Part shown: in pieces, positions 14,750-60,813 of the stretch
Layout: each line of letters begins with the position of its first letter
Position numbering within the stretch: the first letter of the stretch is position 1
Assembly: GCA_018897295.1 (NCBI GenBank)
Contig: JAHILA010000014.1
Location: 3,390-67,389 of the forward strand
Reading direction: 5' to 3'
DNA: 64,000 bases
DNA from: Patescibacteria group bacterium
Lineage (GTDB): Bacteria > Patescibacteriota > Minisyncoccia > RBG-13-40-8-A
Made by a program: the position numbers and the translations under genes
Notes under the pieces: model-generated
What the model saw: only the letters and a program-made list of their open reading frames with translations
What the model was told of the DNA's origin: nothing
Database searches by the model: none

Positions 14750-17700
14750 ATGAAAAAATTATTATCGATTACATTAGCTATCACGACAATTGTTTGGCTG
14801 GCTGGTTCATTTATATATGTCCCAGCTGCTCACGCTGCTGTTGTTGATGGCGACGTTGTAAGCCCTGATGCCACATTTGTTGACGCTGATGGAAACACAT
14901 ACTATCCGTATGATGTTTTTATTGTCAAAATAATTGGCACCAAGACCTTCAAACGTTTAGTTTTAAACCCGCAAGTTTTTGAAAGTTACGGCCACTTAAA
15001 GTGGAGTAATATCAAAACAATCTCAGCTGAGACCGTTAAAGGTTATACTACATCTGCTCTAGTAAGAGCGATTGATGATAGCCCTGTTTATGTGCTCGCT
15101 CCGAATGGAGACAGTGGTACAAAGCAGTGGGTTGATGATTTAACTTGCTTCAATTCAAAGAGTTATGACTGGGATTCAGTTTATACGATTAACGCAACAG
15201 ACAGAGACAATTACTCAACTACAACAAGTTTGTGCGGAACAGGTGGCGGAGCTTTGACGCTTTCATTAGCTTCAGACACACCAGCTGCTTCCACACTTCC
15301 TAACACTGCTCAAGGTGTAACCTTTGTCAAATACAATTTAACAGGTTCAGGAACATTAAACCAGATTGTATTCAAAAGAGATGGAGCTGGCGCTGTTGCA
15401 GATTTTGACGACCTCTACATTTACAAAGATGGAGTTCGTTTAACATCGGGCAGGTCAATTACCACTTCAACCAGTAAGGTTACCTTTATTAATTTAGGAA
15501 TTGTTGCTCCAGCTACATTTGAATTAGTAGCTGACATCAGCGGAACAGCTGGTAATGTTAACTATTTCACTGTTGAAATTGCTTCTGATGTTGTTGCTGA
15601 CACAACTGTTAGCGGAACATTTCCAATTAAGAGTAACACAATGGGAATCAGCGGTACTGCTGCTGGCACAATAACTGTTGCCAGGACTGGCTCTGCTACA
15701 AAAAATGTCACCATTGGCGCCTTAGAACAAGAGATTTCTCAATTTAAGGTAACTGTTGCCACTGAAGGAGCTAATGTCTACAGAATTCAATTATTCAACG
15801 GTGGGACAGCAGACAATAATCTAATTACTAATCTTAAACTTAAAGACAATACAGGAGCAACTGTAGCCACAGCCACAAGTATTGGCTCTAGTGGTTATGT
15901 TTCTTTTGTTTTCAGCACACCTTATTATATTCTAAAAGGTGAAAATGAAATTTTCCACATTTATGCTGATATTGGCGCAACAAAACCAGACAGAACAATT
16001 ATTCTCTATCAGGAATTGGCAACCGATATTTTGGCAAAAGGAACTACTTATGGTTATGGCATGACAGCCACTATTACTAGCTTTGATGCTACTGGTGATG
16101 CTGTTACTGTTACTTGTAAGGGTGGTGACTTAACCTTAAACAAAGTTGGTCCAAATGCCACAAGCATTGGAACTACAACTTCTGACACTGTATTCCTTGA
16201 ATACACAATGTCAGCAGCTGCTGACATTACCATTAAAAGAACAGAATTGATATTCTGTGAGGACACTGATGGCAATGGCACATACAATAACGCTTCCACT
16301 AGTGCTGGCGCTGACATTGAAGATATTAAGATAAAAGAAAAAGACAGCGGAGCCATTGTAATTGGTCCAAAAGACGGAACTTCGTTTAATGACGGTGTCA
16401 GGGCTTCTTGTCCTGGAAGTGTTAACGGTCTTTACGAAGCCTATACTGACACTATTGATTTAGCCGCTGGCACAACAAGAACTTTCCAGGTAACTGCTGA
16501 TATTAAGACCTCTAACACTAATAGTGGTCAACACATAGTGGCTAGTTCCAGAATTAAATTTATTCTTTACAGCTATGCTACAATGATTGGCACTACAGGT
16601 AATGTAAGTTATGTGAAGTATGCCGGAACAAGCGATGCTGTTGATGATTCGGCAATTGCTCCGTCAGGAGATATTGCTGGAGAAGAAATGACTATTGCCG
16701 CAGCAAGCTTAGCTATTACCTTGTCGGCAAGTCCATCAGGAGGTGATGTTACTGCAAATGAAAAAGTATATATCAAGGGCCAGGGCGGAGTAGAAGCAGC
16801 TGGATTCGTATTCACTGCTGGTTCGGCTTCTGATATTACAATCAGCACGATTCAGTTGACTGCTTATACAACAGAAAACACTGCAGTTGCATTGATTGCA
16901 GGAAAAGATACTAATTATGTTAAAGATACTGTTGGCAGTGTTTATATCTATGATAAAGACACTGGAGCAATGGTTCCTGGTTCATCCGCAAAAGGATTCA
17001 CCAGTGGAACAAACTATGAAAATGTTGATTTTACTGGTTTGAGTTGGACAATCACAGCCGGGAACTCCAAGACATTATTGGTAAAAACCGATATTTCTTC
17101 AGCTGCTCCAGCCAGCGCGTCTACAGCAGACACCTGGATTGGATTTGACATTCTTGATGTCAGCGCTGATGTTTCAGCTGTTGACGTAGATGGCAATTCA
17201 GTTGACGGAACAGGCGATGCTTCAAACCCATTAGCTGCTACTGTTAACTACGGTGTTGCTGAATATGGCTCATTGGCAGTTGTCGTTGCTTCTGACACGC
17301 CAGATAAAAGTTTGGCGGTTATGGGCACTACTGATAACGAGGTTTCCAAGTTCAAGCTTACTGGAACTAATGAGGCCTGGTACATTGAGACATTCTCAAT
17401 TGTGCTTGACGATGGCCAAGACGTTAGCTTAGACGACACAGATAACTTCAGCGCACTTAAGCTTAAGTACCAAACCCAAGCTCAGTGGGGTTCAAGTGAC
17501 TGGACAATCAGCACGGGCAAGACCTTTGCGAGTACAGCCAGTTTAGCTTTTTCCTTTACTGGTACTGATAGGATTTATATTCCTAAAGATGATAATTCCT
17601 TTGTCACTGTTTTAGCTAGTATTGATAGCTATGATGGTGGTTCTGGAGGAAAGTCAAAAGTTCCTTTTAGAATGTATCCTATTTCCGGTAGCACTAACTC

Positions 17701-18391
17701 ATTCAAGGTCTATGGCGCTCAATCAGGCAAGCAGTTGTCCACGTTTACTGATCCAACTAGCACAGATTACAATCTGCACTTCGTAACTCGCTCTAAGCCG
17801 GTGTTTGCTAAAGTATCAAGCACTGCTACAAACGAGTTAGCCAGATTTACCATCACTGCTGTTGGTTATGATGTTGTCTTTGACGGAACAGCAGGTACCG
17901 AGATAGACATTGCTAGCGCATGCTTGAGGTTTGATGTTGTTGCTTCAACAACTGACGATGCCACTGTTAATCTTTATCTTTATGACTGGAATGAAAATAT
18001 CGTTGCCAGTAGAGAAGCATTGGGTAGTTTAACCGGAAGTGTAACTAGCGTTTCCTTCGTATTTGAAGAGAAAGATGTTACTATTCCGAGTGGCACAACT
18101 AGAGAACTTCACGTTGACTTGGCTGCAGCAGATGCAAGTACTGACTTCTTAAAGACAGACGAATTCATCTATTTGCAGTTGAGAAATGATGATGGAGGCA
18201 ATTTGGCCACTGGTTCAATGGGCTTCGGAGAAAGAGATATTGTTTGGCACGATAGTACAGCCGAAGAAGGTATAAGTACTGTTGATGGAGATGCAAGCGC
18301 CGAGAGCAGATATGGTATGCCATCTCTGATTAAGAACATTGGCCCATTGCCAATTACTTTCACAATCTTGAGAGGAACAGCAACTCCATAA
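14750..18391 (+). CDS. Giant secreted surface protein (1213 aa) with a shared N-terminal 'KRL-x-LNP' module followed by long Thr/Ser/Gly/Ala-rich beta-rich repeats; S-layer or adhesin-like
   Basis: It has a signal peptide ending in AHA|A. The N-terminal roughly 120 aa are homologous to modules in the 18594, 23076 and 59011 proteins. The rest is low-complexity and Ig-like. Confidence 0.7.
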   Translation: MKKLLSITLAITTIVWLAGSFIYVPAAHAAVVDGDVVSPDATFVDADGNTYYPYDVFIVKIIGTKTFKRLVLNPQVFESYGHLKWSNIKTISAETVKGYTTSALVRAIDDSPVYVLAPNGDSGTKQWVDDLTCFNSKSYDWDSVYTINATDRDNYSTTTSLCGTGGGALTLSLASDTPAASTLPNTAQGVTFVKYNLTGSGTLNQIVFKRDGAGAVADFDDLYIYKDGVRLTSGRSITTSTSKVTFINLGIVAPATFELVADISGTAGNVNYFTVEIASDVVADTTVSGTFPIKSNTMGISGTAAGTITVARTGSATKNVTIGALEQEISQFKVTVATEGANVYRIQLFNGGTADNNLITNLKLKDNTGATVATATSIGSSGYVSFVFSTPYYILKGENEIFHIYADIGATKPDRTIILYQELATDILAKGTTYGYGMTATITSFDATGDAVTVTCKGGDLTLNKVGPNATSIGTTTSDTVFLEYTMSAAADITIKRTELIFCEDTDGNGTYNNASTSAGADIEDIKIKEKDSGAIVIGPKDGTSFNDGVRASCPGSVNGLYEAYTDTIDLAAGTTRTFQVTADIKTSNTNSGQHIVASSRIKFILYSYATMIGTTGNVSYVKYAGTSDAVDDSAIAPSGDIAGEEMTIAAASLAITLSASPSGGDVTANEKVYIKGQGGVEAAGFVFTAGSASDITISTIQLTAYTTENTAVALIAGKDTNYVKDTVGSVYIYDKDTGAMVPGSSAKGFTSGTNYENVDFTGLSWTITAGNSKTLLVKTDISSAAPASASTADTWIGFDILDVSADVSAVDVDGNSVDGTGDASNPLAATVNYGVAEYGSLAVVVASDTPDKSLAVMGTTDNEVSKFKLTGTNEAWYIETFSIVLDDGQDVSLDDTDNFSALKLKYQTQAQWGSSDWTISTGKTFASTASLAFSFTGTDRIYIPKDDNSFVTVLASIDSYDGGSGGKSKVPFRMYPISGSTNSFKVYGAQSGKQLSTFTDPTSTDYNLHFVTRSKPVFAKVSSTATNELARFTITAVGYDVVFDGTAGTEIDIASACLRFDVVASTTDDATVNLYLYDWNENIVASREALGSLTGSVTSVSFVFEEKDVTIPSGTTRELHVDLAAADASTDFLKTDEFIYLQLRNDDGGNLATGSMGFGERDIVWHDSTAEEGISTVDGDASAESRYGMPSLIKNIGPLPITFTILRGTATP

Positions 18392-18450
18392 TCTACTGAT
18401 TTTGACCTGAGCTATTTATCCTTGTAAGATAGCGTTCAGGAAAACTTGAA

Positions 18451-18480
18451 AAGCCCCGCATTTGCGGGGCTTTTCATTTG
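18451..18480 (+). terminator. Rho-independent terminator
   Basis: GCCCCGC, loop attt, GCGGGGC, then TTTTC. Confidence 0.8.
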
Positions 18481-18507
18481 GGGTTGCTTTGTTTGGTTTG
18501 TAAATTA

Positions 18508-18516
18508 TGTTATAAT
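18508..18516 (+). promoter_or_regulatory. Extended -10 promoter element: TGtTATAAT
   Basis: Read directly. It is about 80 nt upstream of the 18594 ATG. Confidence 0.4.
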
Positions 18517-18527
18517 CTGGATATATG

Positions 18528-18553
18528 CCAGCCTACGGCTGGTCACCCGTAGG
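18528..18553 (+). promoter_or_regulatory. Two mutually exclusive hairpins in the 5' leader of the 18594 gene
   Basis: Hairpin A is CCAGCC-tac-GGCTGG. Hairpin B is CCTACGG-ctggtcac-CCGTAGG. They share nucleotides and are followed by an A-run. Confidence 0.35.
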
Positions 18554-18593
18554 GTGAAAAAAAATAAAATTTAAAATTAAAAAATTTATATTT

Positions 18594-19961
18594 ATGAAAA
18601 AGTTATTTTTAGCAATATTAATAATCCTTTTGGTTTCTTTTTGGTTTATCCCTTCAAATGTTTCAGCCGCAATTATTATTGATGGCGACTTAATTAAAAC
18701 ATCCGACAATCCGGATGTTTATATTGTTAAACTTGTGGATTCCTTAAAATACAAACGTCTGATTCTAAATCCCGAAATTTTCAACCAATACAGCCATCTG
18801 AAATGGGAGAATATCAAAACAGTCAGCCAAACAGAATTAGATGAATATACAATTTCTGATTTGGTTAGGGCAGTTGGCGATGAAAAGGTTTACAAATTAT
18901 ACTCCAATGGCGATACAGGAGAAAGAAGATGGATAAAAACAGCGGAAGATTTTAATGGCTTTGGTTATAAATCAAATGCTATTTATGAAATTAATTCTTA
19001 TGAATGGAACTTTTATGCTACTGGGTTGGATTTAGCATATCAGTCCCCGGAAGCCCCAAAAACGCCAATAATCCCGATACCCCCAACAAGAACAGAAAAT
19101 ATCACTATAAAAGTTCCTGCTGATTATGCCACTATCCAGTCCGCTTTAGACGCTTCAATTAACGGAGACACGATTTCTGTTTCCAAAGGAACTTATAAGG
19201 AAAATATAGTAATTAGCAAAAATGTAAAACTGATTGGCGAGTCAGCCAATTATGTGACTATTGACGGGCAAGGCAATGATTCGGCCATAGTTATTAATGG
19301 CGCAAGTGATTTTTCAATTCAAAGATTTATCATCAAAAGCCAAGACCAAAAGGCAGTTTATTGCGTTGGTAATAGTAAAACCAAAGGAGTGATTAAAAAT
19401 ATTATTTTTAAAGATTCAAAATGGGGAGTATACACTGAAAACGATTGCGAATTAGTGATTCTTAATAATATTATTTACAATAATCGCGCATTGGATAACA
19501 AAGACGGCGGAGGAATTTTTATTAAAGATAATCTTTCCTATGGCATTACCATTGAAATTCGCAACAATACTATTGATGATAATCACCATGGCATCTGGAT
19601 GGACAATTCTAAGGTTAAAACCATAAATAATATCGTCAGTTCAAACATGGGCAGCGGGATAAGTACGGGCATATATTTAAAAAGCGGCGAGATAAACAAT
19701 AGTTACAGCGATATTTGGGGCAATGGCGCTAATTCTTTTGGTGGAGTGGGATTTGGCGATGGGGGTATTTCTTTGGATCCGCGTTTTGTCAGTACCAGGG
19801 AAAGAAACTATCGCTTGATCTGGGGTTCTGGGGATGTTTCGCCTTGTATTGATGTTGGAAGCCCAAATACCAGTTATAATGACGGAAAGCTTTTTACTGG
19901 CACTAATTACAGAAGCGATATGGGCGCTTATGGCGGATCGGATAATGGCGGCTGGGAATAA
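18594..19961 (+). CDS. Secreted protein with the shared N-terminal module plus a right-handed parallel beta-helix (PbH1) repeat domain
   Basis: It has a signal peptide and a module homologous to the 14750 N-terminus. Repeats of the form NNxI.NN / IRNNTIDDNHHGIWMD are typical of pectate-lyase-fold beta-helices. Confidence 0.65.
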   Translation: MKKLFLAILIILLVSFWFIPSNVSAAIIIDGDLIKTSDNPDVYIVKLVDSLKYKRLILNPEIFNQYSHLKWENIKTVSQTELDEYTISDLVRAVGDEKVYKLYSNGDTGERRWIKTAEDFNGFGYKSNAIYEINSYEWNFYATGLDLAYQSPEAPKTPIIPIPPTRTENITIKVPADYATIQSALDASINGDTISVSKGTYKENIVISKNVKLIGESANYVTIDGQGNDSAIVINGASDFSIQRFIIKSQDQKAVYCVGNSKTKGVIKNIIFKDSKWGVYTENDCELVILNNIIYNNRALDNKDGGGIFIKDNLSYGITIEIRNNTIDDNHHGIWMDNSKVKTINNIVSSNMGSGISTGIYLKSGEINNSYSDIWGNGANSFGGVGFGDGGISLDPRFVSTRERNYRLIWGSGDVSPCIDVGSPNTSYNDGKLFTGTNYRSDMGAYGGSDNGGWE

Positions 19962-19968
19962 CAAGAAA

Positions 19969-21027
19969 ATGGATATTAAGAAAAAAATACTTTTTTTGGT
20001 GACTCAATCCGAGTTTGGCGGAGCCCAGCGCTTTATTTATAATTTGGTAACCAATTTAAATCAGGATAAATATAGTATTGCAGTCGCAGCAGGATTAGAA
20101 GGTGATAATGAAAACGGACTTTTATTTGCTTTAGAGAAAAAAGGGATTGATACAGGACATTTAAGATATCTTAGACGGTCAATTAATCCTTTTTTTGATT
20201 TCTTGGGCGTTATTGAGATTTTAAAATTGATAAAAAAAGAAAAGCCGGATATCTTATTTTTATGCAGTTCCAAAGCAGGATTTTTAGGGAGTTGGGCAGG
20301 AAAAAACAAAATAAAAAAAGTAATTTACAGAATCGGTGGATGGACTTTTAATGACCCTTGGCCAAAATGGAAAAAGAAATTGTATATTTGGATAGAGAAA
20401 ATAAGCGCTGGATGGAAAGATTACATTATCAATAATGCTGAATCAGACAAACAGCAGGCAATAAAAATAGGTATTAAGCCACAAAGGGGAATCTTAACCA
20501 TTTACAATGGAATTGATGCAGATAAACTGAAATTTTTGAATAAAGGAGAAGCAGGAAATTTCCTGCGATTAAATAATTCGGATTTCGTTGTTGGAACTAT
20601 TGCCAATGATTACCCGACTAAGGGATTAAAATACCTAAGAGAAGTCGAAGGAAAATTACAGGATATTAAGCTTGTAATATTGAGCAATATTCCTGACGCG
20701 TATAAATATTTAAAGGCATTTGACATCTTTGTTCTGTCGTCTGTAAAAGAAGGGTTTCCTTGGGTAATTTTAGAAGCAATGTCTGCCGGAGTGCCAATTA
20801 TTGCTACAAAAGTTGGAGCAATACCGGAAATTATCCAAAACAATGAAAATGGCATCTTGATAGAGCCAAAAAGCCCGAAAGCAATTATTGATGCAGTAAA
20901 GTTGTTAATGGATAATAAAGATTTAATGAGGAAATTAGCAATTAATGGCAGAAAAACAGTTATAGAAAAATTTAATCTGGAAAAAATGATTAATAGATAT
21001 GTAGAATTATTCGAATCTACGAATTGA
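19969..21027 (+). CDS. Glycosyltransferase family 4 (GT-B, retaining)
   Basis: The C-terminal EGFPWVILEAMSAGVPIIATKVGAIPEI motif fits the EX7E signature region. Start is set at ATG 19969, just after the upstream stop. The track ORF 19834 is an in-frame upstream extension that overlaps the previous gene. Confidence 0.8.
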   Translation: MDIKKKILFLVTQSEFGGAQRFIYNLVTNLNQDKYSIAVAAGLEGDNENGLLFALEKKGIDTGHLRYLRRSINPFFDFLGVIEILKLIKKEKPDILFLCSSKAGFLGSWAGKNKIKKVIYRIGGWTFNDPWPKWKKKLYIWIEKISAGWKDYIINNAESDKQQAIKIGIKPQRGILTIYNGIDADKLKFLNKGEAGNFLRLNNSDFVVGTIANDYPTKGLKYLREVEGKLQDIKLVILSNIPDAYKYLKAFDIFVLSSVKEGFPWVILEAMSAGVPIIATKVGAIPEIIQNNENGILIEPKSPKAIIDAVKLLMDNKDLMRKLAINGRKTVIEKFNLEKMINRYVELFESTN

Positions 21028-21094
21028 TATGCGAATCTACAAATAATTCGTTGATTCGGATAAATATTCGTATCATTCGGATAATATATTTATG
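21011..21094 (+). repeat. Copy A of a recurrent intergenic cis-element of about 85 bp; forward orientation
   Basis: CGAATCTAC direct repeats with about 20-bp spacing and ATTCGGATA direct repeats with 21-bp spacing. Near-identical copies occur at 21945-22036 (inverted), 26586-26673, 27074-27120 and 28838-28884. Confidence 0.85.
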
Positions 21095-21895
21095 AGGACT
21101 TGTTTTCTCTCAATTGATGTTGAATCCTCCTACGCCCGGACTAAAGTCGGGGCTTCGAAGGACAAGAATCCGTTTGAGTCAGTAGATAAACTTGACTGTA
21201 TTCTTGATATTTTCAGAAAACATAATGTTCCGGCTACCTTGTTTGTGACTGGCGAAGTTTTGGAATATTGCCCTGATTTAGTTAAAAAATGGTCCAAGGA
21301 TTTTGAAATCGGATGCCATAATTATTGGCACGTCCAGCTGGATAAAATTGATTTAGTAGAAAGGGAGAGGCAGGTTAAAAATTTCGTTAATTTATACAAA
21401 GGTATTTTCGGGTTTTCGCCAAAAGGATTCAGGGCGCCGAGAAATGTGATTGATAACCAGCAATTCCCGATTTTAGAAAGATATGATTTTATTTATGATG
21501 CCAGTGTTTTTCCGCGTTACCCCTGGCGTATCGGAGCATATGTCGGATACAGAGGCAGAGCGCCAATTGCGCCGTATTGGCCGAGCAGAAAGAATTACAG
21601 GGAAAAGGGGGACATAAAGATTCTCGAAATTCCCGAAAGTCCGGCTTTGTTCGATGTTCCGTTTGTCGGAACATGGTTAAGGAAACTGGGCGTGAAGTTT
21701 TTTAAATTTATTTTTAAAATAAAAAAGCCGGAATTTATTAGTTTTAGTATGCACTCTTGGGATGGAATTGAGTTTGAAAACGGCAAGAACAGCGGTAAAA
21801 AATATTTAAAACAACTTGATGAAATGCTGGGATTTTTAAAGAAAATAGGGTATAATTTTAAGAGCGGAGAGCAAATTTCATCTGAAATTGCTTGA
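21092..21895 (+). CDS. Polysaccharide deacetylase (carbohydrate esterase family 4, NodB-like)
   Basis: CE4 motifs are present: SIDVE (motif 1 variant), CHNYWH (HxxxH) and FRAPRN (RxPY-like). Confidence 0.65.
   Translation: MRTCFLSIDVESSYARTKVGASKDKNPFESVDKLDCILDIFRKHNVPATLFVTGEVLEYCPDLVKKWSKDFEIGCHNYWHVQLDKIDLVERERQVKNFVNLYKGIFGFSPKGFRAPRNVIDNQQFPILERYDFIYDASVFPRYPWRIGAYVGYRGRAPIAPYWPSRKNYREKGDIKILEIPESPALFDVPFVGTWLRKLGVKFFKFIFKIKKPEFISFSMHSWDGIEFENGKNSGKKYLKQLDEMLGFLKKIGYNFKSGEQISSEIA
21127..21166 (+). repeat. Degenerate in-frame copy of the GC-rich element family inside the CE4 gene
   Basis: cctacgcc...ggggcttcg..gg.caag shares its 5' and 3' signatures with the 62401 copy. Confidence 0.4.
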
Positions 21896-21944
21896 CAGGT
21901 TTTTTTATGCTATAATTAAAAGGTAATAAATAATAATATATTAT

Positions 21945-22036
21945 CCGAATGATACGAATATGTATCCGAATCAACGAATTATTTGTAGATTCGCATATCA
22001 ATTTGTAGATTCGAATAATAAATTCATAAATTTATG
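21945..22036 (-). repeat. Copy B of the recurrent cis-element, reverse complement of copy A. Copies A and B form an inverted repeat of about 80 bp flanking the CE4 gene.
   Basis: The reverse complement matches copy A with about 2 mismatches over about 78 bp. It ends at the ATG of the 22034 gene. Confidence 0.85.
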
Positions 22037-23032
22037 AAAAACAATAAACAATTTCTTAGCGTATTAATAAGCGTTTTAATCTGCGTGTTTGTGTTTGGGG
22101 TAATTGTTTATGCCACAACAACAATCGGAGACAATATTTCCGCAGGCGGGACTTTAAGCGGAACCAATTTTTCAACAAATGATACTTATTACAACACGTT
22201 TGTAGGTACGGGGATAGAAACAACAACCACAGCCAGCTACAATGTATTTGTCGGTTATCGAGCAGGATATTCAAATGATGATGGAGCAGCAGATAGTAAT
22301 ACGGCCGTTGGTTATAATGCCCTTAACCTTAACACCACTGGTGATTCTAATTCGGCAATAGGTTTTTCTGCTCTTGGGAAAAATACTACCGGTATTGCGA
22401 ATTCAGCAATAGGAGTGGGTGCTCTTGGAGGTAATACTATAGGAGGTTATAATACTGCTGTTGGATATATGGCGGGTTATGCTGGAGTTGGAGAATACAA
22501 TAATAATACTCTTGTAGGTTTTAGGGTGGGTTATGGTAGTAGTGGTGTGTTTTCAAATAATACCGTAATGGGTTATGATGCAGGATATAATCTTACAGGA
22601 AATAATAATATTCTTTTTGGATATCAGGCAGGAGACGATTTAACGGCAGGAAGGAATAATATCGTTATTGGATATGATATTGATACTCTTTCTGCCACAG
22701 CAGATAATTATATGAATATTGGAGGATTATTATTTGGAGATTTATCTACTGCCAGCGCCAAGTATCTGGGCATTCTTGATTCTTCGCCCGCTTACACTCT
22801 TTCTGTTGACGGCACTGCATCTGTTTCGGGAACTACATATTTAGGCGATACTTATTTTAGCGGTGTGGTTTCTGCGTCTGATGCGAATGGTATGTTAGTG
22901 GGGGAAGGAATAAGTATCAAGACTGGAATTGCCTCGCCGAGCGGGGCCTGTGGTACAGCTGGAAGTCTTTATCTGGATACAACAGGGGGTATAAGTAGCT
23001 GTGGCACAGATAATAAGTGGGATCCTAAGTAA
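22034..23032 (+). CDS. Secreted repeat protein with Hep_Hag / tail-fibre-like Gly-Asn-Ala repeats; paralogue of the 60837 gene
   Basis: It has a signal peptide and repeats of the form NTAVGYNAL..NTTGDSNSAIGFSALG. The N-terminal about 65 aa and C-terminal about 60 aa are almost identical to the 60837 protein. Confidence 0.7.
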   Translation: MKNNKQFLSVLISVLICVFVFGVIVYATTTIGDNISAGGTLSGTNFSTNDTYYNTFVGTGIETTTTASYNVFVGYRAGYSNDDGAADSNTAVGYNALNLNTTGDSNSAIGFSALGKNTTGIANSAIGVGALGGNTIGGYNTAVGYMAGYAGVGEYNNNTLVGFRVGYGSSGVFSNNTVMGYDAGYNLTGNNNILFGYQAGDDLTAGRNNIVIGYDIDTLSATADNYMNIGGLLFGDLSTASAKYLGILDSSPAYTLSVDGTASVSGTTYLGDTYFSGVVSASDANGMLVGEGISIKTGIASPSGACGTAGSLYLDTTGGISSCGTDNKWDPK

Positions 23033-23075
23033 TTAGGAACTATAAGTTATTAATTTAATTTAATTTGTTTAATTT

Positions 23076-24368
23076 ATGCGCAAAAAAACTTTAACAATAG
23101 TATTTCTCTTGATTTTTACAGTAAGTATAATCAGCTGGCCATTATTGGCTTTAGCTGCTGATGAAGTTAGTTTTAGCGCTGACACTACAATTTTATTAGG
23201 TAATGGTGTATATTTAACCATATTAAATACAGGGGTCTGCGATGCAATCGTCGTTGGCACAAGTACTTTAACCGTTTCTCTTTCTACTAACTCTTCTTTA
23301 GAAATAAGATCATATAGTAAGTACGTATTGAACAATTCCTTGTTTACAACTGATTGCGAGCATAGCCAGAGTTATTCTCGATTAGTACTTACTGGACAAG
23401 CCGTAGCTACGGATTTGGTGATTACTCCCAATACTTCCGCAACCTGTCCTTCTTGGGGAAGTAGTGGCGGTGGAGGTGGCGGGGCTACTACGACTTCTGC
23501 TCAGCCAACTACAACTACTGGTCAAGTAACTGCCACCGCTTCTGGCGGAGGAAAGACAACTTTTATTACCACTGAAACTGCTACGGCCACAGTTGATTTA
23601 CCGGCAAGCGCGGTTACTTCATCTACAAATATAGCAATATCAATAGAAACCAAGGCAACGGTTACGTCTAGTAAACCAGTGCCATCAGGACAAAATGTGG
23701 TGGGCGGATATATCTATAATTTTACTGCTACTGCTGGGAGTACTGCAATAACTACATTTTCCAAAGACATTACACTGACCTTTACTTATACCGATAGCCA
23801 GGTAACAGGGTTAAATGAAGATACATTAAAGGTTTATTATTGGGACGGAAGTAAATGGGCAGCTTTAACTGGAACACTGAATAAAACGAATAACACGATT
23901 ACTGTTTTAACAAATCATTTTACCTATTTCGCAATATTGGGAGATTCGGGTACAACATCAACAACAATGGCTAAACCAGAAGATTATGGATTAAAAGAAG
24001 GAGATTTAATCAGGGCTCAAGGGGATTTTGACATCTTTATTATCAGCCAGTATGGCTATAAAAGATTATTCCTTAATCCGACTATCTTTAATATGTACGG
24101 CCATCTTAATGGAGGATGGAATGCAGTAAAAACCGTATCTACGGCAACCAGAGATGCGTTTATTACTTCTACTCATTATCGCTTTGTAGATGAAGATAAA
24201 GTATATCATCTGGAAGTAACGGGCGAGGATACTGGTACTTTGCATTGGCTGAATATGACTGGAGAGAATTTTTTGGCTCAAGGAGGAAAATCTGAGGATA
24301 TCTTCACTATTAATAAATCAGAATTGGACTGGTATTCTAAAGGCGCTGATATAACTTCCTTAAAATAA
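23076..24368 (+). CDS. Secreted surface protein with a Thr/Gly-rich linker and the shared module at its C-terminus
   Basis: It has a signal peptide, a low-complexity GGGGGATTTSAQPTTTTGQ linker and a C-terminal 125 aa region about 75 % identical to the 59011 protein C-terminus. Confidence 0.7.
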   Translation: MRKKTLTIVFLLIFTVSIISWPLLALAADEVSFSADTTILLGNGVYLTILNTGVCDAIVVGTSTLTVSLSTNSSLEIRSYSKYVLNNSLFTTDCEHSQSYSRLVLTGQAVATDLVITPNTSATCPSWGSSGGGGGGATTTSAQPTTTTGQVTATASGGGKTTFITTETATATVDLPASAVTSSTNIAISIETKATVTSSKPVPSGQNVVGGYIYNFTATAGSTAITTFSKDITLTFTYTDSQVTGLNEDTLKVYYWDGSKWAALTGTLNKTNNTITVLTNHFTYFAILGDSGTTSTTMAKPEDYGLKEGDLIRAQGDFDIFIISQYGYKRLFLNPTIFNMYGHLNGGWNAVKTVSTATRDAFITSTHYRFVDEDKVYHLEVTGEDTGTLHWLNMTGENFLAQGGKSEDIFTINKSELDWYSKGADITSLK

Positions 24369-24428
24369 CATTGATTTGGACCTTCGCTTCTTCCTTGTAG
24401 GAGTTGAGAAGGAATAAAGAGAAAAATA

Positions 24429-24456
24429 TCCCGACATGGGTCGGGACATTTTTCAT
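24429..24456 (+). terminator. Rho-independent terminator
   Basis: TCCCGAC, loop atgg, GTCGGGA, then CATTTTTC. Confidence 0.8.
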
Positions 24457-49448: not shown

Positions 49449-49452
49449 ATTT

Positions 49453-51659: not shown

Positions 51660-52451
51660 CCAACAGAATAGATAAGAAAGAATAAAATTCGTTTTATCAT
51701 TTTTACACTTAAAAACATAATTCAGTGTTTTTAGAAATATTTTCGGATTAGGGTCGAATTCAATCTTTTGTGTTTTGAAACCAGCTTTTTCCAGAAGTTG
51801 ATTTATTGTTTTGGGAGTAAAATGATAAAGATGGCGAGGGCAGTCAAGACCAAACCATTTATTTTTAAATATTTTTGCCGACAAACTGCGGAAATTTGGA
51901 CCGTAAATAATTATTTCTCCATTTGGCTTTAGAAGGTTTTTTAATTGTTGCAGAGTTGTAAGGGGATTATTGAGATGTTCCAAGCTATTATTCAGGTTTA
52001 TAATATCAAAATAATTAAATTTATAATTTGCGTCTTTAAGTTCTCCGCAAAAAATATTTAGTCCTTTCTCTATAGACTGTTTACAAGCATATTCATTTAT
52101 ATCCAAGCCATATAGTGCCCAATTGGGGTGGCTTTTTTTAATTTCTGATAATTGATTTCCGCTCCCGCAGCCAAAATCTAAAAAATGTAATCTACTTTGG
52201 TCTTCTTTATGGTTTACTCCTTTCTTATGTGAAGATGTGTTTATTTTTTTGGACTGATACGTTTTATAATCAGGAGGATAATATTTTTTTAATCCCTCGA
52301 GGGTGGGCTGGGGATTTAAATAGACCAGACCACAATTAAGGCATTTAACAATATTAAACTTAGTATCGTCTACCTTATGAAGCAGATCTTTGCCGGCAAA
52401 CAATTGTTTCGTTTCATCTTTATTACAAATAATGCATTTGATTTGATTCAT
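51582..52451 (-). CDS. Class I SAM-dependent methyltransferase with an N-terminal zinc ribbon
   Basis: It has CIICN...CLNCGLVYLNPQP followed by FLDFGCGSGNQL. Confidence 0.7.
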   Translation of the reverse strand: MNQIKCIICNKDETKQLFAGKDLLHKVDDTKFNIVKCLNCGLVYLNPQPTLEGLKKYYPPDYKTYQSKKINTSSHKKGVNHKEDQSRLHFLDFGCGSGNQLSEIKKSHPNWALYGLDINEYACKQSIEKGLNIFCGELKDANYKFNYFDIINLNNSLEHLNNPLTTLQQLKNLLKPNGEIIIYGPNFRSLSAKIFKNKWFGLDCPRHLYHFTPKTINQLLEKAGFKTQKIEFDPNPKIFLKTLNYVFKCKNDKTNFILSYLFCWLFRPLSHLLAKFGLTSMMTITAKKL

Positions 52452-52456
52452 ACAGA

Positions 52457-53707
52457 TTATTTTGTTTTTTTAAGCAGTGAAGAAGCTAAGCCTAAACCAA
52501 TAAATCTTGCAATCACTCTCGCAATAATTGCGCCCCAGAGGCCATAAAAATAGATGAATAAAAATAGAACAATTATTTGAATAATAGAGCTATAAATATT
52601 GAGCTGATATAGTTCTTTTTTTGCTGATATAGATTGCAATGCAGCAATAGGAAGCATTACGATTGTCGCGATTAAAGAAATAGCATAGATTTGAGAATAA
52701 GATATTGACTCAAGATATTGCGGGAAAAATATTTTGAAGACCAAAGGAGCGACGAGTATATAAATAATAGTTATAACAGATATTACTAATCCAAACTTCA
52801 ACATCTTTTTTAAAATACCCTGTTTAATTTCCTCTATTGTTCTTTGCGAGAATTTGGGCAGGGCTAAAAGATGGATGTTTTTGAATAATCCCTTTATTTG
52901 ATCTATGGGCACGACAGCAAATGAGTAAATTGCTAATTCAATGGCTCCCAAATAGTGAAAAATTAAAATTTTATCTATTTGGCTTGCTATTGCGTCAAAG
53001 ACCCCCATCAAACTCAAATGTTTGCCATAGGAAATTGTTTTTGGATCTTTTTTTTCGTTGGGTTGGAATTTTTTGAGAGTAATTTTTAAAAAAATAAGAC
53101 GAAGCAGCGTATTAGGGACAAAATAGGCAAAGATAACAAGAAAAATATTGTTGGTTAGAAAAAGCGTGACCATCATTATTGCTGCGGCGATGACTTGGGT
53201 AATGATATCGTATTTTGTAGAAAATTTAAAAAGTTTTCTGCCAGTCAACAAAGAACTATAAATAGCCAGAGAATCCATAAAGGGAAGGAAGGCTGCCGCA
53301 ACCAAAAAACATAAAGTTAAAGCAATATCACCATGAAAATAATAATAGCCGGCTAAAACAATACTGATTAATCCTCCGAATAACCCCCATTTAATTTTGG
53401 TTTTTAAGGCGGAAACAAAAGTACCTTCATAACCGCGGGCAACCGCTTGAATAACCGCGGTGTTTATACCAGAAAGAGTAAAGATAGTCAATAGACCTGC
53501 CAATGACAAAATATATTTATAAATACCGTAAATTTCTTTTGATAATAAATTAGCAAATGCGATTGTCAATAAAAAAGAGGCAATCGTAGAAACAATTTTC
53601 CCAAAAGTTAACCAAAAGCCACCTTCTACTAGATATACCATATCAGTTTGAGTGTATTTTTGACTCCAGCGTAGCAGATTGTAAATTTTTGATTTTATTT
53701 TCTGCAT
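52457..53707 (-). CDS. Polysaccharide biosynthesis flippase (Wzx-like, MOP superfamily)
   Basis: 416 aa with about 12 TM helices, in the typical Wzx size and position next to the initiating transferase. Confidence 0.65.
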   Translation of the reverse strand: MQKIKSKIYNLLRWSQKYTQTDMVYLVEGGFWLTFGKIVSTIASFLLTIAFANLLSKEIYGIYKYILSLAGLLTIFTLSGINTAVIQAVARGYEGTFVSALKTKIKWGLFGGLISIVLAGYYYFHGDIALTLCFLVAAAFLPFMDSLAIYSSLLTGRKLFKFSTKYDIITQVIAAAIMMVTLFLTNNIFLVIFAYFVPNTLLRLIFLKITLKKFQPNEKKDPKTISYGKHLSLMGVFDAIASQIDKILIFHYLGAIELAIYSFAVVPIDQIKGLFKNIHLLALPKFSQRTIEEIKQGILKKMLKFGLVISVITIIYILVAPLVFKIFFPQYLESISYSQIYAISLIATIVMLPIAALQSISAKKELYQLNIYSSIIQIIVLFLFIYFYGLWGAIIARVIARFIGLGLASSLLKKTK

Positions 53708-55077
53708 TATCTACCTCCTCCTTTAAGGACGATGTTAATTGTTTTAAGAACTATGCTTGAATCAAAGATGAAGGAACGGTTTTTTATATAATATAAATCG
53801 TATTGAACTTTCTCAAAATTATCTGCAACAGATGAACCATAGCCGTATTTTATCTGCGCCCAGCCAGAGAGTCCTGGCTTTATTAAGTATCTTTCCTGGT
53901 AGAAAGGGATGTGTGCTTTGAGTTCTTGGTGAAATTCCGGTCTTTCTGCCCGTGGTCCCACAAAACTCATTTCTCCTATAATAATGTTCCAAATTTGCGG
54001 TATCTCATCTAATCTTGTTTTTCTTAAAAATTTTCCGAATTTAGTGATTCTGGAATCTTTTTGTGTAGTCATTTTTGGTCCGTCTTTTTCCGCGTCTTTT
54101 ATCATTGAGCGGAATTTTACAATTTTAAATGGCCTGCCACCTTGTCCGACTCTTATTTGTGTATAGAATATTTTGCCTCGCGATTCCAGTTTTACGATAA
54201 TTGCAATTAGTGGCCAAAATGGCAAACTAATTACTAGAAGAAATAATCCGAAAATAAAATCAAATAATCTTTTAGCGACTTCATAAGGTTGTTTTTTCTC
54301 CTGGGATATATTTTCTAGAAACCAAACTTCATTAATTGCCGTAAGTGGAATTTTTTGCGTTATGTTTTCATAGAACTCGGGCAAATTTACAAAGTCAATT
54401 TTATATTTAATGCATTCAAAAAGATTTTGGATTAATTCCTGTGATTTATAAACCTCTGGCGTGACAATCGCTATGTTTACTCTTTCTTGTTGTAATGTTT
54501 CTCTTAAGTTCTTAAATCCTTGTGTTATTTTTATTTCGGGCAATTCGGTTCGGTCGACTTCTTCATGATTCTCAATAATTAATTTCAGTTTGTAGCCCAA
54601 TTGAGGATTTTTGATTATTTCTTTTGCCAACTCAATGGCTTGTGGATTGTAGCCGATAATCGCTATATTGGTTTTTAGTTTTAAAGATCCTGCTAATAAA
54701 TTAAATAAATATCTCCAGCCGTAGAATAAGAATACGAAAAAGACGATATTTAAAAATAGGTTTGTTTTTGGCGTGATTGAAGATATAATGAATCCCGGTA
54801 TGATGTAAAAAAATGCAATTGAAATTAATCCGCCAATAATTAATGCTCGGATTAGGGCCGAAGAAAAAACGATATTATTTTTGGCAATATCTATTTCGTA
54901 GAGATTGTGAATATAAAAAACAATTATCCAGACCAAATAAACAATTGAAAAGGGGATAAAGTGGGCTTGAAAAGTGCCAAAATCAAACTCTTTATAGCGG
55001 ACTATAAGAGCGATGGTCAAAGAAACGTATAAAATAACTAAATCTCCGATAAGAAGGATTAATTTCTTTGTTTTCAT
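53707..55077 (-). CDS. Polyprenyl-phosphate glycosyl-1-phosphate transferase (bacterial sugar transferase; WbaP/PglC-like initiating enzyme)
   Basis: The C-terminal domain has KRLFDFIFGLFLL...KFRSM...PQIWNII.GEMSFVGPRAERPEF, the bacterial sugar transferase signature. Confidence 0.8.
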   Translation of the reverse strand: MKTKKLILLIGDLVILYVSLTIALIVRYKEFDFGTFQAHFIPFSIVYLVWIIVFYIHNLYEIDIAKNNIVFSSALIRALIIGGLISIAFFYIIPGFIISSITPKTNLFLNIVFFVFLFYGWRYLFNLLAGSLKLKTNIAIIGYNPQAIELAKEIIKNPQLGYKLKLIIENHEEVDRTELPEIKITQGFKNLRETLQQERVNIAIVTPEVYKSQELIQNLFECIKYKIDFVNLPEFYENITQKIPLTAINEVWFLENISQEKKQPYEVAKRLFDFIFGLFLLVISLPFWPLIAIIVKLESRGKIFYTQIRVGQGGRPFKIVKFRSMIKDAEKDGPKMTTQKDSRITKFGKFLRKTRLDEIPQIWNIIIGEMSFVGPRAERPEFHQELKAHIPFYQERYLIKPGLSGWAQIKYGYGSSVADNFEKVQYDLYYIKNRSFIFDSSIVLKTINIVLKGGGR

Positions 55078-55119
55078 ATTGGCTTCATTCTATCTCAATT
55101 TATTTTTATTGACAATAGT

Positions 55120-55148
55120 TTGACACGAAATTTATGTAAACATATAAT
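55120..55148 (+). promoter_or_regulatory. Sigma70 promoter: TTGACA, 17 nt, TATAAT. The -10 element is 10 nt from the ATG, so the mRNA may be leaderless.
   Basis: The hexamers and spacing were read directly. The ATG at 55158 lies 9-10 nt after the -10 element. Confidence 0.55.
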
Positions 55149-55157
55149 AATTGTATT

Positions 55158-57392
55158 ATGGTTATTTCTGAAGCTTTTGCGAAAATACTCCGTTGGGGGG
55201 TTTTTATTTCTTTGTTTTTGCCGTTGGTAATTTTCTCTCAATATCTATCGCCGTTTCATTTCGGCAAGGTGATTATTTTTAGAATCCTTGTGGGAATAAT
55301 GGCGGTTTTTTATATTCCGTTAATCATTGTTGATAAGAGATATCGGCCAAAGTGGACAATGATTTTAATCAGTATTTCTGTTTTTGCTTTTCTGTATTTA
55401 TTCAGCGGCTTAGTAGGAAATAGTTTTTATTCCAGTTTTTGGGGGACGATTGAAAGAATGGGGGGAATTTTCAGTTTTTTGCATTATTTGGTCTATTTTC
55501 TAATTTTAATTAGTATTATTAAGAAAGAAGTTGACTGGGATAAAATTTTAAAAGTTTCGCTTTTTGTTGGTTTTCTTTCTATTCTTTTCGCTTATGGTCA
55601 GCGCCTGAAATTGGGCAATTTTTTCGTTGGCTGGCAGCATGGAGATAGGGTAATTGGCACCATTGGCAATCCTGCTCTTTTTGCCGGCTATCTTTTATTT
55701 ATTCTATATTTGGCAATTTTATTTCTCTCTAGAAAAATAACTCGGCCTGCTGAGAAAGGGTTTTTTGCTGCTATTCTTATTTTGGGCGTTCCGGTTTTAT
55801 TGATGACCGCAGTAAGAGGAGCTATTATAAGTTTTTTTGGCAGTCTTTTGCTTCTGGCATTGTTTTTTCTTTTTTTCCAGAAAAGCCGGAGAATAAAGAT
55901 TCTTTTATTGGTAGCAATTATTGTTTTCGTAATTTTTGGTACCATTATCTGGTTAGAGAAGAATAAAGATTGGGTTAAAAATAATAGTTTACTGCAGCGA
56001 ATCACTGATATTTCTTTTAAGAGTGACACTATCCAAACCAGATTATGGTCATGGGAAAGCGCAATCAATGGCTGGAAGGAAAAACCGATTTTCGGATGGG
56101 GTCCGGAAAATTTTACTTTTCTGCATATGAAATATTTTGATTCCCGACATTTTTCCGGCCTGGGGTCCGAAACAATTTGGGACAGGGCCCATAATATAAT
56201 TTTGGAAATGCTTTCAACCATGGGCATAGTTGGTCTTTTAAGTTATATTTTCATTTTTTTCAGCATCTTTTATATTCTGATTAAAAAATTTAAGCAAAAG
56301 CAAATCGAGAATTCTGATTTTGGCATAATTATAGCAATGCTTATTGCCTATATTGGACAGAATTTGTTTATCTTTGACACATTTGCTAATTATTTTTTAT
56401 TCTTTTTGATATTGGGATATATAAATAATCTTCATTTAAAAGAGGAGACCTATTCAATACCGACAAAAGAGCCATCTGTCTTTTTGGCTGCGATTTTATT
56501 GGTTTTTGTCTTAATATTGACATATCAAACCGGAATTAAACCGGCAAAAGCCAATTATGCCTGCACTAGAGCAATTGTAGCTGGCCAAAGGGGAGATGCG
56601 AATGAGGCTTTCCAGTATTACAAAAAAGCATTGAGCTATGATAATCCGCAGGTTAATTATGACATAACCCACAAATTAGCTACTTTTACCATACAGCTTA
56701 TTGAAGCACAGAGACAGAAGAATAAAACCATTGATGTAAATTTGGCGCATTACACAATTGAAGCAGTAAAAAAGAATATCGAAAGATTTTCCCTAGACAC
56801 AACGCCTTATCTTTATGTTGGAAGAATGTATATTCTTTTAATCGATGAGGAGGCGGATACAGCTGGTAAACTGGCAGAAGAATTCATCGGCAAAGCCCTG
56901 GATTTAAATAGAAAGAATCCAAGAATATGGTATGAACTTGGACAAGCGCAATTATCACTCGATAAATATAAAGAGGCCTATGATAGTTTCAAGGAAGCAT
57001 TAAACCTTAATCCGCAGGTAGCCATTTCTTACTGGTTTTTGGGTATGGCTGCTTATGAAAATGGCCAATACGATTCAAGTCATTACCAAGAAGCTGCTCA
57101 ACTTGTTGAAAAGGCGATAGTAATGGGATACAATTACAAAGGCAGTATAAATGATTTAATGCGTTTAGTTCATATTTATGACAAGGTCGGGAATTATAGT
57201 AAAATTGTAGAAGTTTACAAGTTGGCAATATTGAAACAGCCAAGCAATGCTCAACTGCATGCTTCTTTGGCTGCTGCATACGCTAAAATTGGAGATTACG
57301 AAAATGCTAAAAAAGAAGCGCTGAAATCAGCTGAAATTGATCCGAATTTTAAATCAGATGCCGAGAAATTCATTAATTCATTGCCGCGTTAA
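55158..57392 (+). CDS. O-antigen ligase-domain (Wzy_C) membrane protein fused to C-terminal TPR repeats. It may be an O-oligosaccharyltransferase or a ligase.
   Basis: It is polytopic with a WSWESAINGWKEKPIFGWGPENF / RAHNIILEMLSTMGIVG Wzy_C signature. The C-terminal 250 aa carry TPR-like repeats. Confidence 0.7.
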   Translation: MVISEAFAKILRWGVFISLFLPLVIFSQYLSPFHFGKVIIFRILVGIMAVFYIPLIIVDKRYRPKWTMILISISVFAFLYLFSGLVGNSFYSSFWGTIERMGGIFSFLHYLVYFLILISIIKKEVDWDKILKVSLFVGFLSILFAYGQRLKLGNFFVGWQHGDRVIGTIGNPALFAGYLLFILYLAILFLSRKITRPAEKGFFAAILILGVPVLLMTAVRGAIISFFGSLLLLALFFLFFQKSRRIKILLLVAIIVFVIFGTIIWLEKNKDWVKNNSLLQRITDISFKSDTIQTRLWSWESAINGWKEKPIFGWGPENFTFLHMKYFDSRHFSGLGSETIWDRAHNIILEMLSTMGIVGLLSYIFIFFSIFYILIKKFKQKQIENSDFGIIIAMLIAYIGQNLFIFDTFANYFLFFLILGYINNLHLKEETYSIPTKEPSVFLAAILLVFVLILTYQTGIKPAKANYACTRAIVAGQRGDANEAFQYYKKALSYDNPQVNYDITHKLATFTIQLIEAQRQKNKTIDVNLAHYTIEAVKKNIERFSLDTTPYLYVGRMYILLIDEEADTAGKLAEEFIGKALDLNRKNPRIWYELGQAQLSLDKYKEAYDSFKEALNLNPQVAISYWFLGMAAYENGQYDSSHYQEAAQLVEKAIVMGYNYKGSINDLMRLVHIYDKVGNYSKIVEVYKLAILKQPSNAQLHASLAAAYAKIGDYENAKKEALKSAEIDPNFKSDAEKFINSLPR

Positions 57393-57404
57393 AACAATAA
57401 ACAG

Positions 57405-57971
57405 ATGAATAAAAAAACATTAATTATTCTGGTAATATTATTTATTATATTAACAGGATTGGTTCTGGCTTATTTTTTTATTTTTAAAAAGACGCTGCCA
57501 CAGCAAAACGCACAAACCGAAATAAACAAAGACGGCTTCGTTATTGAATTACCAGATGGATGGGTGGAGGTAGAAGCTGTAATGGGTTCTTTTGCAACAG
57601 CAATGAATAATAAAGAACAGATTAACAATGCGGATGCTGCGAAAATAGGTTTTAGGAGTTATTACTCTGTTGTTTACGATACTTTTAATGAAAAAACCAA
57701 TAATGATTATCTGGAGAAAATAGAAACTTCTTTAAAGGGAAATTTTCCAGAAGTAAAAATATCAAAGGAGGAAGGCAGGAATATGGATGGCGAACCAATT
57801 TATTTTATGGAAACAGACATTATTCAGCAGGATATTGATTTTAAAGTTTTATTGGCTGTAAATATTAAGGATAAAGATGTCTGGATAATCTCGTTCAATA
57901 CGCTTGAGGAAAGCTGGGAAGGATACAAAAATCTATTTTATCAAATTGCGGGAAATTTCCAGATTAAGTAA
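57405..57971 (+). CDS. Hypothetical membrane-anchored extracytoplasmic protein
   Basis: It has an N-terminal TM segment. No motif was recognised. Confidence 0.4.
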   Translation: MNKKTLIILVILFIILTGLVLAYFFIFKKTLPQQNAQTEINKDGFVIELPDGWVEVEAVMGSFATAMNNKEQINNADAAKIGFRSYYSVVYDTFNEKTNNDYLEKIETSLKGNFPEVKISKEEGRNMDGEPIYFMETDIIQQDIDFKVLLAVNIKDKDVWIISFNTLEESWEGYKNLFYQIAGNFQIK

Positions 57972-57981
57972 TAAATAAAAT

Positions 57982-58740
57982 ATGGAAGATACAAATAAAA
58001 GTAAAAAGATTAACTGGGCTATAATTGCGCCCGTGATTTTAGCTGTAGTTGTTGCGGCAATTTTCATCTATCTTGATTATAGGAAACCAGGAGATGACCC
58101 AAATTCACCGAATAATTCAACTTCAGAAGAATATAAGCCAAAGCCAGTTTCTCTCAAGGATAACCCAAGGCGTTCTGAAGTAATTACGGATTTCTCCAAA
58201 TATGGATGCGCAAGCCCGGCAACCATTGAGCCCACAATAACAAAAGAACCGGATAAAATATGGACAATACCAAAAGATGGCGGATCTAGTATAGTCAGTT
58301 TGGGCAGATATAAAATCAAAAATTCAGTCAATACGATTTTAGATATACGCAAGCTTTGGCTGTATTTTTTCAGCGACAAATTGAGCGTCAGAGAAGACAA
58401 GGTTTATGCTTTGGAAAAATCATATGTCTCTAAAATGACTTTAGTGGTGAATGGTTATGAGCAGGAAATAAAATTAGGGGGTACAGAATATATGTTGATA
58501 GAACTTTCTGATTATCCTTTAGGTGATATTTATCCCTATGACAGAGAAACGTTTTTGGAGTTTGAGGTTTTAATTGAATTAAAGTGCAATAATCTTCAGA
58601 ATGGAACTTGTCTAAGCAATGAAAATAAATCTTTGGAATTTTTGGACAGAGCTGATATTTCTCCAATGTTCAAGATTTTTGCTCTCGGATGTCAGGAATT
58701 TGATAAAGATATCACTATAGATGCTGAATTTTCTTATTAA
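57982..58740 (+). CDS. Hypothetical membrane-anchored extracytoplasmic protein
   Basis: It has an N-terminal TM segment and a Pro/Ser-rich linker. No motif was recognised. Confidence 0.4.
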   Translation: MEDTNKSKKINWAIIAPVILAVVVAAIFIYLDYRKPGDDPNSPNNSTSEEYKPKPVSLKDNPRRSEVITDFSKYGCASPATIEPTITKEPDKIWTIPKDGGSSIVSLGRYKIKNSVNTILDIRKLWLYFFSDKLSVREDKVYALEKSYVSKMTLVVNGYEQEIKLGGTEYMLIELSDYPLGDIYPYDRETFLEFEVLIELKCNNLQNGTCLSNENKSLEFLDRADISPMFKIFALGCQEFDKDITIDAEFSY

Positions 58741-58744
58741 TACT

Positions 58745-58773
58745 TGACAGCCAATTTTTTACCTGCTAGTATA
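58745..58773 (+). promoter_or_regulatory. Promoter-like element: TTGACA, 17 nt, TAGTAT/TATATA
   Basis: Read directly. It is followed by a GNRA hairpin (TCCC-GAAA-GGGA) and a terminator-like hairpin. Confidence 0.4.
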
Positions 58774-58821
58774 TAAACAGTTGAATGGGTGATCCCGAAA
58801 GGGAAAACTCTATATTTGGGG

Positions 58822-58858
58822 AAAAACGTCTGGCTTTTAGTCGACGTTTTTCTTTCTA
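58822..58858 (+). terminator. Terminator-like hairpin: AAACGTC, loop, GACGTTT, then TTTCTTTC
   Basis: Read directly. It would end a transcript of about 80 nt initiated at the 58745 promoter. Confidence 0.35.
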
Positions 58859-58887
58859 TTTGACACGTATTATTCATTCCAGTTATA
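58859..58887 (+). promoter_or_regulatory. Second promoter-like element: TTGACA, 17 nt, TTATAC
   Basis: Read directly. It is about 125 nt upstream of the 59011 ATG. Confidence 0.4.
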
Positions 58888-59010
58888 CTTAAACTATGGA
58901 TTGTGTTGCTTAAGGAGTTCGGGAACTAGTACCCATTCAACACTAAGTATTGGGGTTTTACTTTCCCGGCTCCTTTGGCAACGCAATTTAGGATATAATT
59001 AATTATAATT

Positions 59011-60813
59011 ATGTTTTTTCCAAAATCTAATTCGATTCAGAAATATAAGAAATTTTTATCAATCCTGCTGGTTTCAGGCGGGATTTTTATTATTTGCAGT
59101 TGTTCTGTTTTTGCTGCTTTTGAAGTTGGCGACAGCAGGGAATTTTTTGTTGATTCATCTTTTGATTATGAAACAAGAACAAAGATAGCAGCTACATTAC
59201 AAAAGGTTTCTGCTAATGCTTATTTTTATGTTGAAGATCCATTTTGGCAGGAATTGTCTCTGGCCCAGCAAAGTTCTTTTCTTGACGGATTAGATGACAT
59301 TGCTGTTCAATTTAATGAGAAAACCTATCCTTCCTTAAGATATATTTTCGGCTCGGAATGGAATCCTGGAATTGATAACGATGAAAGAATTACAATTCTT
59401 CTCACGCAGTTAAAAAAGACAGCAGGAGGATATTTTAATGAAAGAGATGAAGTTGCCAACTTACAGGAACCTACTTCCAATAACAGAGAAATGATTTATA
59501 TCAATGTCAGCCAGGTTGGCACCAGTTTAGTTCACGGTTTGATTGCCCATGAATTGCAGCATATGATTAATTGGAATCAAAAACAAAGACTTAATAATGT
59601 TCAAGAAGATATTTGGCTTAATGAATTGAGAAGTGAATATGCTCCAACAATAGCTGGACTGGATAGCGATTACGTAGGAAGCAATTTAGAAAGGCGCGTT
59701 GAAGATTTTCTTTTCCAGCCATCAGATTCCCTGACCGAGTGGAAAGGCGACAGGTATGATTATCCATCAGTGAATCTTTTGGGCCATTATCTGGCTGAGC
59801 AGTTCGGCGAAGATATTTTTTCTTTAATGATAAAAAACAATAAAGTGGGAATCTACAGCATTGAACAGGCATTAAAAGAAAAAGGATATAGTTCTACTTT
59901 TTCTCAGATATTTAATAATTGGGTAATTGCTGATTATCTGAATGACAAATCAATCTATAGCGGAATATACGGCTACAAAAATCCGTATTTGAAAGGAAAT
60001 GTCCAGATTTCACCAATCACTTACAGCATCGTATCAGCAAGCGTAATTAATATCTCGCAGCAGGTAAAGGATTGGTCGCCCTATTGGTATCGTTTTATTA
60101 ATAAACAGGATGCAAGCACTATTGCTAAAGATTTGGAAATTGAGTTTGAAGGTTTTATGGGACAGGGGGATTTTAATGTTTATTACATCGTTGATTACAT
60201 AGACCAGCAGACAGTAGTTGGAAAATTAACATTAGAAAATCAAAGCGGAGTATTAAAAATACCTGATTTCAAAACAAGAGTTGATTCGGTTACGATTGCT
60301 ATTTCTAATCAATTTAAGAAAAGCGATTTTCAAAGCAATGAACCGACAAATCCTTTTATTCTTTCAGCAGTTACGACTCTCTTTGATGAAATAGTTGAGC
60401 CACCTGGAGAAGAATTGCCCAAGCCAGAGGATTATGGATTAAAAGAAGGGGATTTAATCAGAGCAGTTGGTGATTTTGATATTTTCATCATTAGCCAACA
60501 TGGCTATAAAAGATTATTCCTTAATCCTGTTATCTTTAATATGTATGGCCATTTGACTGGCGGATGGAAAGCAGTTAAAACCGTTAGTCCGGAAGTAAGA
60601 GATGTATTCAAGACATCGAATTATTACCGTTATGTTGATTCGCCCAAGGTTTATAATTTAGAGATTTCCGGCGAGGATACAGGAATTTTAAGTTGGTTAA
60701 ACATAACCGGCGAGAACTTTCTATCTCAAGGCGGAAAACCGGAATCAATATTTATAATTAACAAATCAGAATTGGATTGGTATCCAAAAGGAGAGGATAA
60801 AATGGGGTTGTGA
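59011..60813 (+). CDS. Secreted putative zinc metallopeptidase (HExxH) with the shared module at its C-terminus
   Basis: It has a signal peptide and HELQH within LVHGLIAHELQHMINW. The C-terminal 125 aa are about 75 % identical to the 23076 protein C-terminus. Confidence 0.55.
   Translation: MFFPKSNSIQKYKKFLSILLVSGGIFIICSCSVFAAFEVGDSREFFVDSSFDYETRTKIAATLQKVSANAYFYVEDPFWQELSLAQQSSFLDGLDDIAVQFNEKTYPSLRYIFGSEWNPGIDNDERITILLTQLKKTAGGYFNERDEVANLQEPTSNNREMIYINVSQVGTSLVHGLIAHELQHMINWNQKQRLNNVQEDIWLNELRSEYAPTIAGLDSDYVGSNLERRVEDFLFQPSDSLTEWKGDRYDYPSVNLLGHYLAEQFGEDIFSLMIKNNKVGIYSIEQALKEKGYSSTFSQIFNNWVIADYLNDKSIYSGIYGYKNPYLKGNVQISPITYSIVSASVINISQQVKDWSPYWYRFINKQDASTIAKDLEIEFEGFMGQGDFNVYYIVDYIDQQTVVGKLTLENQSGVLKIPDFKTRVDSVTIAISNQFKKSDFQSNEPTNPFILSAVTTLFDEIVEPPGEELPKPEDYGLKEGDLIRAVGDFDIFIISQHGYKRLFLNPVIFNMYGHLTGGWKAVKTVSPEVRDVFKTSNYYRYVDSPKVYNLEISGEDTGILSWLNITGENFLSQGGKPESIFIINKSELDWYPKGEDKMGL

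Follow-up and report, generated by a model that had tools for sequence, protein, structure and literature searches.

A portable terminal module of secreted Patescibacteria proteins and its putative role in surface anchoring

Four carrier proteins and their neighbourhood

The window, i.e. the whole stretch of 64,000 nucleotides that was analysed, from an ultra-small bacterium of the Patescibacteria (CPR), encodes on its forward strand exactly four proteins sharing a module of about 125 aa, and each of them has a Sec-type signal peptide visible in its sequence. The four paralogous copies lie within 46 kb, and no fifth one emerged when the window was scanned with the HMM in all six frames. In p14750 (14750..18391) and p18594 (18594..19961) the module directly follows the signal peptide, and in p23076 (23076..24368) and p59011 (59011..60813) it forms the extreme C-terminus; this distribution, two N-terminal and two C-terminal copies, had been described in an earlier note on this DNA and is confirmed. 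The hmmsearch envelopes cover aa 28-164 of p14750 (copy 1, nt 14831..15241), where the first strand is followed by an insertion of 11 aa, aa 25-150 of p18594 (copy 2, nt 18666..19043), aa 303-429 of p23076 (copy 3, nt 23982..24362), one residue short of the end of this 430-aa protein, and aa 474-599 of the 600 aa of p59011 (copy 4, nt 60430..60807). The N-terminal copies thus begin at about aa 25-30, after the predicted cleavage site, and not at aa 40 as proposed before.

Copies of the N-terminal and C-terminal groups share 34-41% identity in pairwise BLASTP (E 4e-16 to 2e-33). The C-terminal pair is much closer, with 75.8% identity at the protein level, matching the previous estimate of about 75%, and 74% at the DNA level, and both of its members start with PEDYGLKEGDLIRA. 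Across the four copies 31 columns are invariant. The sequence is not of low complexity, and an alignment artefact of that kind was rejected on the basis of these invariant columns, of the confident fold and of the large family described below. The module is acidic (pI 4.5-5.4 for the window copies, family median 5.1), a property that would not be expected of a wall anchor insofar as many wall-binding modules are basic.

The passengers attached to the module are very different. p14750 is a giant of 1213 aa in which signal peptide and module precede a passenger of ~1040 aa; it is secreted, acidic (pI 4.4) and rich in T/A/S/G. It belongs to a conserved family of ~1150-1450 aa, with at least 40 full-length matches at 25-77% identity, whose composition is S-layer-like; the Ig-like repeats formerly attributed to it found neither a Pfam match nor a PDB sequence match. 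In p18594, a Pro-rich linker connects the module to a right-handed beta-helix of the NosD type, and the Pfam Beta_helix/NosD match agrees with the earlier description. The stalk of p23076 is indeed Thr-rich (17% Thr) and lies between the signal peptide and an 'HFTYFAILG' motif that precedes the module, with a weak PGF-pre-PGF match (E 0.05) also located upstream of the module. The peptidase assignment of p59011 is confirmed by its alignment, HExxH motif included, with the neutral metalloprotease of PDB 7bb8 (E 1.6e-6), this passenger being followed by an acidic/Pro linker and the module. Apart from the signal peptide, no TM segment is present in any of the four proteins, and their C-termini lack an LPXTG signal.

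An ECF sigma factor gene (13296-13856, +) and a gene for a DUF5667 protein (13941-14714, +) immediately precede p14750 and are read in the same direction. This three-gene arrangement was observed in 21 of 120 related loci; the sigma factor and DUF5667 genes are the sole recurrent partners beside module genes and are confined to the giant family. Control by an ECF sigma factor would be unexpected for a constitutive S-layer protein. Both in the window and in related loci, module genes lie within or adjoin envelope-glycan biosynthesis clusters, their link with the glycan genes being one of proximity. Neither sortase, T9SS nor exosortase genes were found in the window or among the recurrent neighbours, and the window contains no CsaB pyruvyl-transferase gene and no T7SS gene (Ecc or WXG).

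A large family with a duplicated fold

An exhaustive profile search retrieved 2,801 cluster representatives at E<=1e-3 from a library clustered at 50% identity, that is to say at least 2,800 protein clusters are marked by the module. Among the best 148 of these 2,801 representatives, it is terminal in 142 (53 N-terminal after the signal peptide, 82 C-terminal and 7 in which it makes up the whole protein), 119 have a signal-peptide-like N-terminus, and 31 contain two to three copies, either in tandem or dispersed. Stand-alone proteins, consisting of a signal peptide and the module alone, also exist. Related genomic loci were retrieved with a hand-made degenerate DNA pattern of the module; it was present in all 120 of them, nearly all from Patescibacteria MAGs. 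Protein searches returned 19 short metagenomic matches with the module sequence, their reach being limited by the word index, and three proteins with the unit alignment, one of them new (P0168). The module is specific to Patescibacteria, and its conservation between very different CPR lineages amounts to 45-66% identity.

The identity between N-terminal and C-terminal modules (0.46) equals that among N-terminal ones (0.47) and the nearest neighbours are often found at the opposite terminus, which led us to reject an ancient split between N-type and C-type modules. As judged from these comparisons, the module has repeatedly changed terminus. A Pfam scan of the family identified fn3, TIG, trypsin, subtilase, cohesin, Kelch, SH3_3, M23, S-layer and beta-helix domains as passengers. 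As the earlier note had proposed, the module is not catalytic but a portable element at the ends of unrelated extracellular proteins.

This domain is previously uncurated, without an entry in Pfam, NCBIfam or PDB, as the earlier failure to name it had suggested. No Pfam or NCBIfam model matched the module in the four window proteins, in 97 homologues or in isolated units. In particular, neither SLH (PF00395), CW_binding_2 (PF04122), CW_binding_1, LysM, SH3b, GW, WxL nor PG_binding covers it in the four proteins and the 97 homologues, SH3_3 occurring only as a passenger, in two proteins; the sorting-domain models of these two libraries (T9SS CTD, PEP-CTERM, PGF-CTERM) did not match it either. 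PHROGs gave no match with the module, and a generic single unit matched only phrog_9616, of unknown function. Comparison of the module and unit profiles with PDB sequences produced matches at chance level only, Foldseek of the module model against PDB gave nothing below E 0.1, and a structural search of BFVD returned uncharacterised phage proteins only. In the literature, we found no paper describing this domain in CPR or linking it to PlyCB or EccB.

The AlphaFold2 model of copy 2 is confident (pLDDT 94.1, pTM 0.84) and has the topology (b-b-b-a-b-a) x2. An internal duplication is detected by hhalign (97.7%, E 1.8e-12), and the module is thus modelled as two tandem units of ~58 aa, located in p18594 at about aa 30-87 (unit 1) and aa 88-147 (unit 2), each predicted to form a four-stranded sheet with two helices and packed together into one compact body of ~125 aa. 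The predicted fold is weakly similar to endolysin wall-binding domains of the PlyCB type and to the repeats of EccB. The repeats R1-R4 of EccB, which belongs to the membrane part of the mycobacterial ESX/type VII secretion system (PDB 3x3m, 7nps), fit the description of the unit: those of EccB1 comprise a four-stranded sheet and two helices in ~51-57 aa and are PlyCB-like, and wall binding by EccB repeats is itself a hypothesis (PMC4769845). The EccB model (PF05108, T7SS_ESX1_EccB) nevertheless gave no Pfam match in the four proteins, in 97 members or in isolated units, the last at E<=10, and 3x3m was not among the results of the profile search of PDB sequences. Moreover, EccB is encoded in a T7SS locus and combines a TM helix at its N-terminus with four repeats and a central core sheet, whereas the module, a portable terminal element of secreted proteins with cleavable signal peptides, has two units and lacks a core.

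Wall-binding domains of phage endolysins and uncharacterised proteins of actinophages are among the module's nearest structural relatives. The fold scores with PlyCB and the enterococcal endolysin domains (PDB 4f87, 6ist, 7d55) are weak and no sequence similarity to the module accompanies them. These phage domains are homo-oligomers of single units and target a foreign wall, whereas the module joins two units within a single chain, is chromosomal and is spread over a whole surface proteome.

Proposed anchoring and alternative roles

We consider it somewhat probable that the module tethers surface proteins to the cell's own wall. This role appears the most reasonable because the placement of the module is bimodal, at one terminus or the other, because the four proteins show no other anchor, and because the fold has a weak likeness to PlyCB and EccB. 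After Sec export of the carrier and cleavage of its signal peptide, the module would attach itself, through non-covalent contacts, to a conserved constituent of the cell's own monoderm envelope, which we infer to be peptidoglycan or a wall-linked glycopolymer, and a flexible Pro/Thr/Ser-rich linker would keep the fused passenger at the cell surface. The predicted ligand site is a conserved cluster of basic and aromatic residues in unit 1 (K54, R55, Y66, H68 and W71 in p18594 numbering). The passengers displayed in this way would comprise the acidic giant of ~1200 aa, the beta-helix protein, the Thr-rich stalk protein and the metalloprotease; the giant of the p14750 family may be the S-layer protein or the major surface protein.

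SLH (in Bacillus and others) and CWB2 (in Clostridioides difficile) are non-covalent anchors of S-layer proteins and of paralogous surface proteins, and the module would be their functional counterpart in CPR. As in these systems, a repeated terminal module is found within one genome on a major surface protein (a putative one here) and on many unrelated exoproteins, the carriers are devoid of any other anchor, and genes for wall glycopolymers are nearby. In contrast to them, its fold and sequence are unrelated, without any Pfam SLH or CW_binding_2 match, it has two units instead of three, and a CsaB pyruvyl-transferase gene is absent from the window.

Other roles could be envisaged. The module could bind the envelope of the organism that carries the episymbiont and deliver proteases or effectors to the surface of this host or prey, as would be in agreement with the foreign walls targeted by the endolysin domains among its nearest structural relatives, with the actinophage proteins also found there, with the obligate episymbiosis of cultivated CPR bacteria reported in abstracts, and with the presence of proteases and a peptidoglycan hydrolase (M23) among the passengers. 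We regard this as unlikely. CPR lineages as distant as those sharing 45-66% identity in the module must have different hosts, and a conserved ligand on their own envelope is therefore favoured; in addition, the module heads a conserved, structural-looking giant in a conserved operon, and proteins equipped with nothing but a host-binding module would be lost from the cell that produces them. Just as improbable, in our opinion, is docking between proteins, either by self-association or by attachment to a protein, instead of a glycan, of an S-layer or pilus. PlyCB and the CBDs of LysIME-EF1 and Lys170 work as homo-oligomers (octamers for PlyCB and tetramers for the enterococcal domains), binders of anionic walls are not usually acidic, some of the passengers are cohesin domains, and the stand-alone proteins would suit such a role. 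However, no conserved partner gene recurs except the sigma factor and DUF5667 genes of the giant family, and a final cell anchor, of which no other is visible, would still be needed.

The earlier note had proposed secretion or sorting as an alternative to anchoring, and it is this part of its interpretation that did not hold, whereas the end-module nature and the lack of a name did, and anchoring or wall binding appears the most reasonable role. A signal read by a dedicated machine, in the manner of T9SS C-terminal domains, LPXTG/sortase or PEP-CTERM, would account for the terminal position and for the secretion of all carriers, but classical Sec signal peptides are already present on the carriers, no such machine is encoded in the window or among recurrent neighbours, and the corresponding domain models do not match. 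A sorting signal was rejected, and we judge it very improbable, given the occurrence of the module at either terminus (including the 53 N-terminal cases among the best 148 proteins, where a strictly C-terminal signal would be expected), in two to three tandem or dispersed copies, and as whole proteins; sortase dependence was rejected as well, with neither an LPXTG signal in the four proteins nor a sortase gene in the window or among recurrent neighbours. Slightly less credible still is an intramolecular chaperone or an inhibitory pro-domain of secreted enzymes. In some proteases and enzymes the module does lie beside the signal peptide, but many passengers are non-enzymatic (Ig, fn3, the giant protein), it is also C-terminal, multi-copy or alone, and one and the same module serves unrelated folds.

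Implications for the surface of Patescibacteria

Patescibacteria account for much of bacterial diversity; they live in attachment to other microorganisms, and most of their proteins lack an annotation. More tentatively than for the anchoring itself, we propose that the module may be the general surface-protein anchor of much of this group, acting on a CPR-specific wall component and carrying an S-layer-like giant together with the full set of surface enzymes, and that its ~58-aa unit may have a common origin with the EccB repeats of actinobacterial type VII secretion and with small proteins of actinophages. If this is true, the shared ancestry would give a function to the enigmatic EccB repeats, and the module HMM would define the 'surfaceome' of thousands of uncultivated episymbionts. 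Since Pfam, NCBIfam and PDB have none, the family merits a curated domain entry.

A single recognisable anchor module would allow the displayed proteome to be read from genomes; the clusters that it marks include the conserved giant under ECF-sigma control, proteases and glycan-active enzymes, and the S-layer or major surface protein could be nominated in this way. The module would also provide a handle for localising, enriching and labelling uncultivated cells, for example with a fluorescent module as a probe of the CPR wall.

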